A stretch of DNA of 64,000 nt from Escherichia coli (GCF_013122565.1 NZ_CP053258.1); one strand, 5' to 3'. Shown: positions 43,330 to 63,659, numbered from the stretch's first letter. Made by a program: numbers and translations. The notes: generated by a model not told the origin, from the sequence alone.

Positions 43330-44316
43330 TCACTTATTAAAATGCCCCCAACGGAAATACATGTCACATGCCATCATAAAATCGTTATGCCAGAGGAACC
43401 GACAATGGAAAAAATAGTAAATTAAGCACGGTACATAGCAGAGTAAAAAATAGGCTTCAAACCAAATCCGCCATTCCACAAGCGTTGCCAATACCGACAC
43501 CAGCGTAATCCACATCACTTCAATAACCAGCAATATGAATAACCGAAGCCAAAGCGGCTTGGCAAAAAAGGTCGACAACGCATTTTCACTGGAGAAAAAC
43601 AGATCGATTTCCTGCAAAAAAAGCCTGCCCAGAAAAGCGTACCGCTTGGAGAAGCGCAGAAAAAACAGATTAATCGCCAACACTACGCCACAAAGAATGA
43701 GCAATGCAATTATCGATTTAAACGTTAACCACTGCCCCTCTGTCACAAAAGAGTTACTGTTACGCAACGGGCTGATAGTAAGCAGGTTAACAACCGTTGA
43801 GATACACACCGAAAGCAGCACATAGCGAGTCAGACTTTTATATTTTACTTTTTTCGCTACTGAAATAGCGACCTGCTTGACATAACTGGTGCGGATCATC
43901 CGAAACAACAGAAAGATGACCAACGGCCCAAGTAACGAAATCAGGAACAGCGCATATAACGAGGGTAGAAGCTGGTATAGCCCCCAACTCATTGCACTCA
44001 ACATGATTAACGACAGAAATCCTGCCACCAGAGGTTGTGTAAGAAATAATTCTATTTTGTGGTTCTGCTTTTTCTTAAACCACGAAAAATCGATATTCTT
44101 CGTGACGCATTTATAAGCCCAGTACGCCTTGAGATCAAAAATAAAATTATACAGCACCAGGACCAGAATCCCACTAACTACACCAATATCCTCTGATGGA
44201 AAAGTAAACCCTGCATTTTTCCAATAAAAGCCTATCAGAATAAGTCCAATAGCATAAATGTATATCAGATTTCGTTTATCCTGAAAGCGAATAAAAGTTA
44301 AATAATCAGGAATCAT
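43330..44316 (-). CDS. ycdU: Polytopic inner-membrane protein YcdU
   Basis: 328 aa (the K-12 YcdU length), many TM segments. Its start overlaps the upstream stop by 4 nt. Last gene of the array. Confidence 0.75.
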
Positions 44317-45257
44317 TTGAATACCTTCGCATCACTAAATGCTTTACGACAATGCATAACTCGTTGCTGATCCACGCCAGCAAAATCATTTAACATATTC
44401 CCCAAATAGGGCTTATTACTTATTTCAAGGAAAGCTACCGGGGTTGGCATATTCAGAAATGTATCGAGAGATTCAGTCCATTTCACCGTATGAGTTAAGT
44501 GTAATGAGAGATTTTCTTTGATAATTGACGGAGCGACCTCGCTTTTTGCTGTTACGTTCATCAGAACCTGATGCTCTGGCGAAGCGATATCCAGTCCGGC
44601 AAGATAATCGCGCATTGCCTGAACGCCGTCTTCCATCAAACGCGTGTGCCAGGCACCGCTCACACCGAGTTTAACCGGTTCGTACCCAGCGGCCATCAGC
44701 AGCGTGGCAAATTCATTCAACGCAGTCTGCGTTCCCCCAATAACCTGCTGGCGCGGCGTGTTATCACAGCTAATATCCAGCGCAATGCCTGATTCCGTAA
44801 TCATCGTCTGCAGTTGTTCGCGGTTGATGCCTTTAACCGCCAGCATTGCGCCTTTATTTCTCTGGCTTTCGTCATGCATCAGGCTGGCTCTGAAGTGAAT
44901 CATGCCAAATAGCGTCTCAAGAGAAATAGCTCCAGCGGCGTAGAGCGCACTGTATTCACCAACGCTGTGTCCGCAGGAGCCCACAACCGTTAAATTCTCA
45001 AGACGCTCGCGGCACAGGGTATAGAGCGTTACATTAATTGCGGTCACCGCCAGTTGTTGTACCGTCGTTTGAATAAGGCGATTCATCGGCCCTTTCTGAC
45101 ACAGGCGACGCAGGTTCAGTCCGGAAATATCGCTGGCACAATCCCAGATATGTTTTGTACTGGCGTTGAGATCCCAAAGATCGCTGCCCATACCAATAAC
45201 CGGATTACCCTGACCGGCAAAAAGCAGTACTGTCGGTTGTGAAGCATTATTCATCAT
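44313..45257 (-). CDS. ymdE: FabD-like malonyl-CoA:ACP transacylase, apparently the intact form of K-12 pseudogene ymdE
   Basis: 314 aa. LFAGQGN oxyanion motif, active-site [14 protein letters not shown], and a downstream His (SGAWHTRLM). Confidence 0.8.
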
Positions 45258-62800: not shown

Positions 62801-63659
62801 CGTTACTGTTTAACAGGTTACCTTTGGAATCGATGCTGACACCATTAACCCCCCCAGCAATAACGCCGAGGTTGCGAACCCCCACACCTTTCTCGGTGCT
62901 GACCAGACTGATTTTGTTCGCATACATTCCGCCCAGTTTGGCAACATCTACGCTGTAACCGTTACGGGACCCCGTGGCGGATACGCTACCGGTCACCTGG
63001 CCTGCGGCATTAACATAGTTATTGCCAGCAACAACGTTCAGCTCATCGGCAGACACTTTGCCGTTAACTACCACGTTACGGGACAGAATTTCTGTCGGGC
63101 TGGCGTTATCCAGTTTACCGAGCGTAATGGTACCGCCGTTCACGGAGTAACCGGCCAGCTTGTCATCCTGGATATCCGGCGTCCCGGTGGTTAAGGTAAG
63201 TTTACCTGTATTGATTGAACCGCCACCGTTTACAGTAATACCATTCGGGTTGGCAATAATCAGATCCGCTTTATCCCCTGCAACTTCCATCATCCCATTA
63301 ATGGTTGAAGGATTTTTGGAAGTAACCTCATTCAGGATCACCTTCGCCGACCCGGAGGTCAGATTACTGTTTCCCTGAATATTTCCGGCAAGTGAAGTAC
63401 TGGATTCATTAGCGCTGTTATTGAAAACGACACCATTTTTATCAACGTTTAGGTTATCCCAGATATTATGAGATAAACCGCTACCGTTAGGTTTGTTGAT
63501 GTCAACGACTGGCACACCATTGGCGTTATATACCGTTCCATTTTTTATGACTAATCCCGCCGCTTGAGAAGCTACAGGAAAAGACAACATCATAAGTATA
63601 GCAATAGGGGTTAATGCTTTACCCACCGTTGCTTCCTTACTTAAATTTATCATCGCCAC
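59847..63659 (-). CDS. TpsA exoprotein (filamentous-haemagglutinin-type adhesin)
   Basis: 1270 aa. TPS domain motifs GLSHNIWDNLNV, VVFNNS, ILNEV and ANPNGITVNGGG, then Asn/Gly-rich beta-helix repeats. Confidence 0.9.
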   Translation of the reverse strand: MAMINLSKEATVGKALTPIAILMMLSFPVASQAAGLVIKNGTVYNANGVPVVDINKPNGSGLSHNIWDNLNVDKNGVVFNNSANESSTSLAGNIQGNSNLTSGSAKVILNEVTSKNPSTINGMMEVAGDKADLIIANPNGITVNGGGSINTGKLTLTTGTPDIQDDKLAGYSVNGGTITLGKLDNASPTEILSRNVVVNGKVSADELNVVAGNNYVNAAGQVTGSVSATGSRNGYSVDVAKLGGMYANKISLVSTEKGVGVRNLGVIAGGVNGVSIDSKGNLLNSNAQIQSASTINLTTNGTLDNTTGTVTSVGTISLNTNKNTIVNTRAGNISTMGDIYVNSGTIDNTNGKLAAAGMLAVDTNNATLINSGKGSSVGIEAGLVALKTGTLNNSNGQIRGGYVGLESGALNNNSGDIQTTGDIAIISNGNVDNNKGLIRSSTGHIVIGAAGSVNNGSTKTADTGSSDSLGIIADTGVEIGANNINNNGGQIASNGNVSLSSYSTIDDYAGKILSNSKVIIKGSSLRNDTGGISGKQGIEVAVGGSLTNNIGVISSEEGDISLLANSVDNHGGFMMGQNITMESMSGVNNNTALIVASKKLKINARGSIENRDGNNFGNAYGQYFGMPQQTGGMVGKEGIELSGQNIYNNNSRIIAEDGPLTLQAQNTFDNTRALVISGADASIQVGGTYYNNYATTWSAGNLDIDATTLQNSSSGTMIDNNATGFIASDKNLSLEVVNSLTNYGWISGKGDVDVTVKNGNLYNRNTIAAEKGLDIAALNGIENWKDISAGGDLTMNTNRHVTNNSNSNMVGQNIVINAVNDINNRGNIVSDVDLNVTTKGNLYNYLYMVGYGDVALTANSVANNNATIEATGDLIIDSKGNVGNNRGKLHALNGVLSVKGSNLNNDYGEIRGYDDVTLALTGNYDSFKGSLTSETGDVTLTANIVDNAYGLIAGENVSVDAKSTIYNNTALIAANKKLVINAGGNLENRDGNNFLRYNGEVFGITDNVGGIVGKEGVTLSAQNVYNNNSSIIAENGPLNLLSRGTLDNTRALLSSGADAIIRAAGMFYNNYATTYSAGNLDVYAASLSNASDGRLEDNTATGVIASDKNLDLNVDNSVTNYGWISGKGDVHFNVLKGTLYNRNAIAADNALTINALNGVENFKDIVAGTALTIDTQKYVTNNSNSNMLGQTIAINAVNDINNRGNIVGDYSLGVKTTGNIYNYLNMLSYGVAGVSANKVTNSGKDAVLGGFYGLALEANETDNTGTIVGM
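59950..60870 (-). repeat. Internal tpsA repeat, copy 2
   Basis: See copy 1. Shared blocks include TNYGWISGKGDV, VTNNSNSNM and AINAVNDINNRGNIV. Confidence 0.85.
61084..62004 (-). repeat. Internal tpsA repeat, copy 1 (~307 codons)
   Basis: Aligns colinearly with 59950-60870 at a constant 1134-bp offset, for example NNTALIVASKKLKINARGSIENRDGNNF versus NNTALIAANKKLVINAGGNLENRDGNNF. Confidence 0.85.

Follow-up and report, generated by a model that had tools for sequence, protein, structure and literature searches.

A conserved 17-gene module of Escherichia coli and other Enterobacterales that may build a specialized acyl lipid for the cell surface

The 64,000-nucleotide stretch of Escherichia coli DNA analyzed here (GCF_013122565.1, NZ_CP053258.1), which we call the window and to which all coordinates refer, carries at 43330-63659 an array of 17 intact open reading frames (ORFs), all on the minus strand and running from tpsA (63659) to ycdU (43330). 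On balance, we favor the view that this array is one functional module that builds a specialized acyl lipid for the envelope or surface of the cell, together with the exoprotein TpsA in most lineages. A more specific version, in which the product is a new class of enterobacterial surface lipid that is made with a folate-dependent one-carbon step on the carrier protein, reaches the outer membrane by Lol-like transport of its own and is either bound to TpsA or covalently carried by it, is put forward only as a tentative proposal. The genes themselves are already known from annotation; the breadth of their distribution, the division into a core and variants and two cryptic enzymes are absent from the papers that we found. 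The array is part of O-island 47 (OI-47) of E. coli O157:H7, z1528-z1556 (PMC8565820), where annotation goes no further than a "polyketide or fatty-acid biosynthesis system", and the OI-47 reviews and primary papers that we consulted cover only GrvA and the deletion of the whole island, which raises type III secretion (PMC8565820, PMC10877973, PMC3378721). The original prediction for this DNA, made from its sequence, knew of no product for the array, and our literature search likewise found none assigned to its genes.

The evidence that carries the interpretation is the conservation of the whole set. A genome scan with the array's fused ketosynthase (KS)-chain-length factor (CLF) protein gave 32 loci, and a metagenome scan added about 40 further loci with matching gene order, for a total of about 70 loci in more than 15 genera. 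The genera from the genome scan include Enterobacter, Kosakonia, Klebsiella (Klebsiella oxytoca), Leclercia, Buttiauxella, Rahnella, Mixta, Izhakiella, Serratia, Silvania, Acinetobacter and others, and homologue lists further give Pantoea, Aeromonas veronii, Klebsiella aerogenes, K. grimontii, K. michiganensis and an Orbaceae species. Copies are borne on plasmids in Enterobacter bugandensis (322 kb) and Rahnella sikkimica (549 kb). An island restricted to O157 does not agree with this spread across genera and sometimes megaplasmids. All 17 genes are present in identical order in every genome-scan locus that is not interrupted by a contig end, at 38-88% protein identity, and the retention of full length and order at 40-86% identity indicates purifying selection. 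Many Enterobacterales from the gut or associated with plants, several pathogens among them, carry the module as a unit that is conserved and under selection.

Three architectures were found, with further loci reached through distant relatives of YcdU. Type A, present in the window and in most genera, joins the two-partner secretion (TPS) genes tpsA-tpsB to 15 others. Type B (Serratia rubidaea, S. rhizosphaerae, Entomohabitans and one metagenome contig) is without the TPS genes; a long AT-rich leader and unrelated regulators lie upstream of it. Two further genes belong to this type, one for a 245-262-aa protein (with a DUF6134 match in the metagenome copy) and one for a short-chain dehydrogenase/reductase (SDR) whose top model is the enoyl-ACP reductase FabL (1.1e-55, versus 2.7e-41 for FabG); this FabL-like gene was seen in Serratia rubidaea, Entomohabitans and one metagenome contig. 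The acyl carrier protein (ACP) and GcvT-like genes of type B overlap by 4 nt, and the YcdU-like gene of the metagenome copy was identified with hhalign (98.8%). In type C (Providencia and Proteus mirabilis), a TpsA of 838-846 aa that is 30-32% identical lies directly upstream of acpS, no TpsB was found in the upstream flank, and the genes for the LolA-like protein and for a secreted protein that we call hyp462 are absent. Common to all three types is a core of 13 genes: those for AcpS, a ketoreductase (KR), a dehydratase (DH), the ACP, the GcvT-like protein, KS-CLF, a second KS-like protein (KS2), hyp317, an ATP-binding cassette (ABC) ATPase, hyp218, an ABC permease, a malonyl-CoA:ACP transacylase (MAT) and a YcdU-like protein (Table 1).

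A same-strand run of 17 genes has little weight alone, and the conserved order is the stronger evidence. The predicted minus-strand genes, overlaps and abutting pair have exactly the expected positions in the ORF listing: overlaps lie at 51069-51072, 49401-49417, 46653-46656 and 44313-44316, positions 48760/48761 abut, and the remaining gaps are 3-88 nt when RefSeq start sites are used. The 4-nt overlaps join KS2/hyp317, LolA-like/hyp462 and MAT/ycdU, and these junctions stay tight in 30 species. Across the 32 genome loci, the median gap is 17 nt for tpsB-acpS, 3 nt for KR-DH, -4 nt for LolA-hyp462 and -17 nt for ABC-hyp218. The ORF positions, the small gaps and the conservation of order and gaps across loci thus bear out an operon-like layout. 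Promoter- and terminator-like motifs within the array showed no excess over shuffled sequence, which fits a single transcription unit without proving it, and no riboswitches or known RNAs were found within the array. A 99.9% identical E. coli chromosome has the same 17 coding sequences annotated as intact in RefSeq.

Table 1. Genes of the array in the window, listed from tpsA to ycdU
Gene or product	Position	Strand	Length (aa)	Features
tpsA, TPS exoprotein	59847-63659	-	1270	Pfam TPS 3.4e-41, Fil_haemagg; signal peptide
tpsB, Omp85-type TPS transporter	58139-59758	-	539	ShlB 3.8e-69, POTRA_2, POTRA_3
acpS-type 4'-phosphopantetheinyl transferase	57755-58123	-	122	Pfam ACPS 7.7e-19
FabG-like 3-oxoacyl-ACP reductase (SDR/KR)	56980-57741	-	253 (RefSeq start)	adh_short_C2 6.7e-58, KR domain
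FabZ-like 3-hydroxyacyl-ACP dehydratase (DH)	56428-56976	-	182	Pfam FabA 9.5e-14
Dedicated ACP	56125-56406	-	93	PP-binding 4.8e-06
GcvT-like folate-binding aminomethyltransferase-family protein	54929-56089	-	386	GCV_T 3.7e-33, GCV_T_C
KS-CLF fusion	52297-54855	-	852	Two ketoacyl-synt + Ketoacyl-synt_C pairs
KS2, non-canonical KS-like protein	51069-52292	-	407	Weak KS Pfam matches
hyp317	50119-51072	-	317	Cryptic thiolase fold (KS/CLF-like); overlaps KS2 stop by 4 nt
LolD/MacB-type ABC ATPase	49401-50108	-	235 (RefSeq start)	ABC_tran 1.2e-35
hyp218, secreted, predicted periplasmic	48761-49417	-		Signal peptide in sequence; cluster-specific; in types A, B and C
FtsX/MacB-type ABC permease	47450-48760	-	436	FtsX 6.7e-18, periplasmic MacB_PCD 5.6e-09
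LolA-like protein	46653-47441	-	262	PF17131 LolA_like 2.6e-36; signal peptide
hyp462, secreted, cluster-specific	45268-46656	-		Signal peptide; conserved aromatic C terminus ...GFKYYL/F
FabD-like MAT	44313-45257	-	314	Acyl_transf_1 4.6e-25
ycdU, polytopic inner-membrane protein	43330-44316	-	328	Overlaps MAT stop by 4 nt

The domains assigned to these proteins in the original prediction were all found again with Pfam and NCBIfam, and the complete set for chain extension that it described is present in both domains and catalytic residues. AcpS (TIGR00516, 79.6 bits; cut-off, 59.8) and the KR (NF009466, 227 bits; cut-off, 222) score above the thresholds of their models, and the top NCBIfam match of MAT, fabD TIGR00128, is below its own (177.5 bits; cut-off, 260.9). 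The MAT motifs GHSVGE and GAWH are conserved in orthologues, the serine motif LDSVD of the ACP is invariant, and the DH orthologues keep the His of GHFP and the Glu of the ISEIFGQ motif; the DH also carries a variable helical insertion. The N-terminal domain of KS-CLF has a full Cys-His-His triad, with the motifs TACTA, AHGTGT and GHNIG aligning with FabF structures in the Protein Data Bank (PDB), and in the C-terminal domain, which matches FabF-type structures at 1e-21, Leu, Thr and Phe replace all three catalytic residues. Judged by these residues, the N-domain is an active FabF-like KS and the C-domain is a fused, dead CLF-like partner. Since a KS with Cys-His-His, a KS-like partner without the Cys, a Ser-bearing ACP, a phosphopantetheinyl transferase and a malonyl transferase are all present, the set contains what a minimal type II fatty acid synthase (FAS) or polyketide synthase (PKS) comprises, and the domains and catalytic residues support a working line of this kind. 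No AMP-binding (adenylation) domain, thioesterase or enoyl reductase was found with Pfam among the 17 proteins. A cispentacin-type PKS was also considered and rejected, as the AmcB, AmcE and AmcF models match weakly and far below cut-off.

The pairing of an active KS with a dead KS-like partner is shared with Iga11/Iga12 of ishigamide biosynthesis and with PfaC, in which the two are likewise fused in one chain. The array differs from these systems in its low identity to them, in a KS nearer to FabF, in having no multidomain megasynthase and in an extra, non-canonical pair with the thiolase fold. The best PDB match of the KS N-domain is 9s5h (1.4e-77), followed by FabF-type synthases (2e-72) and the ishigamide KS 6kxd_A (3e-58). 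Entry 9s5h is a recent heterodimer of two different KS-like chains (B and C), the second of which is also matched by the dead C-domain; a literature search found no paper describing it.

The extra pair consists of KS2 and hyp317. When KS2 was aligned with the KS N-domain using hhalign, Cys159, His294 and Tyr329 fell at the triad positions, and across 36 orthologues the nucleophile is mostly Cys and in several cases Ser, the first His never varies, and an invariant Tyr stands in place of the second. Decarboxylating condensing KSs have an invariant Cys with two His or with His/Asn, a pattern that KS2 does not show. A Cys/Ser-His set without the second His favors acyl transfer (loading or off-loading) over decarboxylative condensation, and KS2 looks like an acyl-transfer enzyme rather than a condensing one on the basis of its residues. 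KS-like acyltransferases with a Ser nucleophile are known, DpsC being an example. The predicted structure of hyp317 has the thiolase/KS fold and resembles the ishigamide CLF (6kxd_B); neither sequence nor profile comparison linked it to the KS domains of the cluster itself, and the kinship is visible solely in the predicted fold. The name "ATP-binding protein" given by NCBI to hyp317 orthologues finds no support in that fold and looks like a misannotation. hyp317 is the probable partner of KS2, and the two are likely to form a loading or off-loading pair. The claim that the array has neither a priming enzyme nor an acyltransferase overlooked these two candidates. The hyp317 and YcdU families are essentially confined to this cluster.

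The GcvT-like protein, which is kept in types A, B and C, scores below the cut-off of every GcvT equivalog model (136 versus 300 bits and 99 versus 236 bits). It matches the T-protein of Thermotoga maritima (E = 2.5e-24), with a conserved Asp that aligns with an Asp of that protein in the i.dD motif. The GCV_T and GCV_T_C fold is shared with GcvT, DmdA, LigM and the folate domains of sarcosine and dimethylglycine oxidases. It differs from this family in being co-conserved with a carrier-protein lipid pathway and in its genetic context, since Pfam detected no gcvH, gcvP or L-protein genes in the array. There was no characterized relative among the 120 matches listed, which were orthologues only. 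Together with YcdU, the GcvT-like protein represents the least understood steps of the module. The GcvT-like step, KS2/hyp317, YcdU, hyp218, hyp462 and the TPS linkage all lack a characterized counterpart in the type II FAS/PKS-like clusters for envelope lipids, to which the module is otherwise closest.

The dedicated envelope exporter that had been predicted was also found, in the form of the ABC ATPase, the permease with FtsX and MacB_PCD domains and the LolA-like protein. The top NCBIfam matches of the first two are LolD TIGR02211 (227.7 bits; cut-off, 307.75) and lolCE (91.5 bits; cut-off, 362), respectively, and the FtsX transmembrane domain, MacB-like periplasmic core and cognate ATPase of a type VII (MacB/FtsX-type) system are all present. 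Type VII (MacB/LolCDE) ABC systems act on substrates that are already on the periplasmic side. With a signal peptide, and with no lipobox Cys conserved among its orthologues, the LolA-like protein is probably soluble and periplasmic. hyp218 was not assigned to any family by PDB and Pfam profile searches, with weak TPR hints in a few orthologues. hyp462, which has two invariant Cys residues and gave nothing significant in Pfam or PDB profile searches, is probably an outer-membrane beta-barrel, considering its aromatic C terminus and signal peptide. YcdU is confidently modeled as an all-helical membrane protein (pLDDT 88.9), and when 1.84 billion representative proteins were searched exhaustively with its profile, just 71 relatives came up. 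The likeness to Lol and MacB systems thus extends to a LolD-matching ATPase, an FtsX/MacB_PCD permease and a periplasmic LolA-like carrier. However, the scores are far below the equivalog cut-offs, only one permease gene is present, a LolB-type lipoprotein is lacking, and the LolA-like protein belongs to PF17131 and not to LolA; in place of LolB, the array has a cluster-specific periplasmic protein and the probable barrel. The cargo of the ABC pair is presumably a non-protein lipid.

Taken as one module, the array could work as follows. Judged from sequence, AcpS can activate the private ACP and the FabD-like MAT can load it with malonate, after which the N-domain of KS-CLF would condense, with the C-domain as its CLF-like partner, and the FabG-like KR and FabZ-like DH would then act. 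Enoyl reduction, if there is any, may be provided in trans in E. coli, and sister clusters of type B encode the FabL-like reductase. The GcvT-like protein, whose gene appears translationally coupled to that of the ACP in some variants, might catalyze a one-carbon reaction that depends on folate, with an ACP-bound or head-group intermediate as its substrate, and a KS2/hyp317 heterodimer could perform acyl transfer for priming or off-loading. At the inner membrane, the product may be processed or flipped by YcdU and extracted from the outer leaflet by the MacB/LolCDE-type ABC pair with periplasmic hyp218. The soluble LolA-like protein would serve as the periplasmic carrier, and hyp462, the probable barrel, as the receiver in the outer membrane. 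TpsA, secreted by TpsB, might present the lipid, bind it or be modified by it. If the link between TpsA and the lipid is functional, the module would provide TPS proteins with a second way of becoming lipid associated, distinct from that of CdiC, and would add a new envelope component relevant to adhesion, biofilm formation or host interaction. Such a lipid-dependent TPS system would, if real, be present in enterohemorrhagic E. coli O157:H7, Klebsiella oxytoca, Enterobacter, Proteus and Providencia.

Several points weigh against this interpretation. The only recorded phenotype is the increase in type III secretion after a 31.7-kb deletion of OI-47, which also removed regulators (PMC3378721, PMC10877973). 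We infer the assignment of the GcvT-like reaction to folate-dependent chemistry, and the roles given to YcdU, hyp218 and hyp462 are guesses from position and signal peptides; for YcdU, a search with the model gave no meaningful structural neighbor in the PDB. Type C is without the LolA-like protein, hyp462 and a nearby TpsB and type B is without the TPS genes, so that the outer-membrane leg and TpsA are not obligatory for the core chemistry.

TpsA has an N-terminal TPS domain, with an NPNGI motif and matches to the structures of FHA and HpmA, and the neighboring tpsB encodes a transporter that combines POTRA domains with a ShlB barrel, so that the pair is identified as a two-partner secretion system. 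The remainder of TpsA is a hemagglutinin-repeat beta-helix. Its orthologues are mostly 850-890 aa long, with an expansion of the repeats by about 400 aa in E. coli and Enterobacter, and most of them have the C-terminal end ...N.G.IVG[LM] in common. A contact-dependent growth inhibition (CDI) system was rejected, as motif and Pfam searches found no VENN motif or toxin module in TpsA, there is no immunity gene, and the genes that follow tpsA are tpsB and acpS.

A first alternative, which we regard as fairly unlikely, is that the pathway serves mainly to lipidate TpsA, with a private FAS making a special acyl-ACP and KS2/hyp317 transferring the chain before or during export, after which the acylated beta-helix would insert into membranes or recognize them. 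Its appeal lies in the fact that tpsA opens the operon in two lineages whose TpsA proteins are as divergent as noted above and in the acyltransferase-like residues of KS2 in place of a condensing triad. TPS operons commonly carry a dedicated modifying enzyme, such as HMW1C or EtpC. Class IV CDI systems (cdiB-cdiC-cdiA) provide a precedent that makes the idea plausible by analogy, as CdiC lipidates CdiA in an acyl-ACP-dependent reaction (PMC8510554), and they share with the array a TPS exoprotein that is genetically linked to acyl-ACP chemistry. The array, in contrast, has no acyltransferase of the HlyC/CdiC family, no VENN/toxin module and no immunity gene, and it has a whole biosynthetic line and an exporter. 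Moreover, type B keeps KS2, hyp317, YcdU and the exporter without TpsA, and the lipidation of TpsA would leave the invariant ABC extractor, hyp218, the LolA-like protein and the barrel unexplained.

It is unlikely that the array is instead a highly reducing type II PKS that, encoding no enoyl reductase, makes a polyene or another unsaturated ACP-built lipid or pigment similar to the aryl polyenes (ape). That no enoyl reductase occurs among the 17 E. coli genes had been taken in the original prediction to mean an unsaturated product, and KS-CLF, KR and DH together do form a polyene-type toolkit; the ishigamide KS is also among the PDB matches, hyp317 has a fold like that of the ishigamide CLF, and ape clusters contain a LolA-type protein. 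The argument from the missing reductase is weak, since type B carries its FabL-like enzyme and FabI could act in trans in E. coli. The KS N-domain is, in addition, closer to the FabF-type elongating synthases than to the ishigamide enzyme and only 31-33% identical to ApeR and ApeO, and the adenylation of an aryl starter, a thioesterase and an MMPL pump have no counterpart. Read together, the FabF-like KS and the FabL-like reductase of type B make a polyene the less likely option.

The ape cluster of strain CFT073 lends itself to a direct comparison, as it lies in the same chromosomal neighborhood, beside dgcT (ycdT), and its product is an outer-membrane lipid (PMC8253772). It shares with the array a self-contained type II FAS/PKS-like set (KS, CLF, KR, DH and ACPs) and envelope export that includes a LolA-family protein. 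Matches at the protein level were limited to the KR (33%), the ACP (33%) and the KS (31-33%, ApeR and ApeO), and the other 13 proteins had none; tblastn gave no match between the LolA-like protein of the array and the ape LolA gene, nor any for the DH and the CLF. The adenylating starter enzyme of the CFT073 locus, the thioesterase, the glycosyltransferase, the lysophospholipid acyltransferase (LPLAT), the MMPL pump and DUF3261 of ape are absent from the array, whereas the GcvT-like protein, MAT, AcpS, the fused KS-CLF, KS2/hyp317, YcdU, the ABC extractor and the TPS pair of the array are absent from ape. Membership in the ape family was rejected because the similarity is generic only, in agreement with the earlier view that the two gene contents differ. 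In CFT073, ape (728-15749 of the extracted locus) is followed by a decayed TPS/CDI pair (16265-21805) consisting of a ShlB-family pseudogene and a 5.4-kb hemagglutinin-repeat pseudogene, a second, unrelated form in which a lipid cluster adjoins TPS genes at this hotspot.

We consider it improbable that the array is made up of two units that are unrelated and merely adjoin, an ordinary pair of TPS adhesin genes next to a lipid operon with a separate promoter. The absence of TPS genes from type B, which has its own long AT-rich upstream region, the lack of a neighboring TpsB next to the TpsA of type C and the variable length of the TpsA repeats would all be expected from such an arrangement. Against it, the tpsB-acpS gap (15 nt here; median in 31 species, 17 nt) is 4-23 nt in 30 of the 31 type A loci, the pairing is found across more than 15 genera and on plasmids, and TpsA again stands next to acpS in the Morganellaceae despite the deep divergence. 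The recurrence of tpsA at the front of the operon in two lineages that diverged deeply speaks for a functional connection, and its absence from type B shows that the core chemistry is independent of TpsA. The TPS adhesin is more than an appendage of the pathway, being linked to it in two divergent lineages (types A and C) and absent from a third (type B).

In complete E. coli genomes, at least 80% of the region is held by 379 of 5426 and some piece of it by 2668 of 5426, so that most E. coli have lost it. In K-12 and many strains of phylogroup A, only a MAT gene truncated by IS3 (ymdE) and ycdU remain (PMC4951805), and another strain has the same N-terminally truncated MAT beside ycdU. From the K-12 remnant, "island" is for this segment better read as a deletion in K-12, and K-12 offers a natural near-null host for gain-of-function lipidomics. 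That the array is a decaying or silent relic in E. coli, as this patchy presence, the K-12 remnant and the truncation of some copies might suggest, is very improbable in view of the 17 intact ORFs, the conserved catalytic residues and the purifying selection described above. Decay in individual lineages is seen in Mixta mediterraneensis, where an insertion of about 1.1 kb separates the permease and LolA-like genes, and in VOFL01000127.1 (a 5.4-Mb contig), where a deletion has taken the 3' part of tpsA, tpsB, acpS and most of the KR gene.

Outside the Enterobacterales, plasmid pBEMB20-1 of Bacillus tropicus carries at 11995-17154 of the extracted locus a KS-CLF/ACP/KR/SDR/FabZ/AcpS set of a type found on megaplasmids of the Bacillus cereus group. 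Full-length identity between the two KS-CLF proteins is 27%, and the set is without a GcvT-like protein, an exporter and TPS genes; by sequence comparison it is a remote analogue.

In the E. coli strain with the closest copy of the cluster, PapRG-04-4, a CDI system with a gene for a toxin-activating lysine acyltransferase of the CdiC type between cdiB and cdiA lies at 17810-29089 of the extracted locus; it exemplifies machinery for TpsA lipidation and is absent from the window. Positions 1-41000 of the window are not collinear with PapRG-04-4, and 20000-43400 matches an island of the type found in JNE23-001 and PapRG-06-5, with a chaperone-usher fimbrial operon, a ydeO fragment and many insertion sequence (IS) remnants. 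Immediately downstream of ycdU are an IS200C-type tnpA gene (42542-43000) and an STnc490 RNA element (43010-43133; 140.8 bits), which is IS200 associated and lies outside the array, followed by a tyrosine integrase gene (41160-42251). Together, these elements form the boundary of another mobile island, one that varies between strains.

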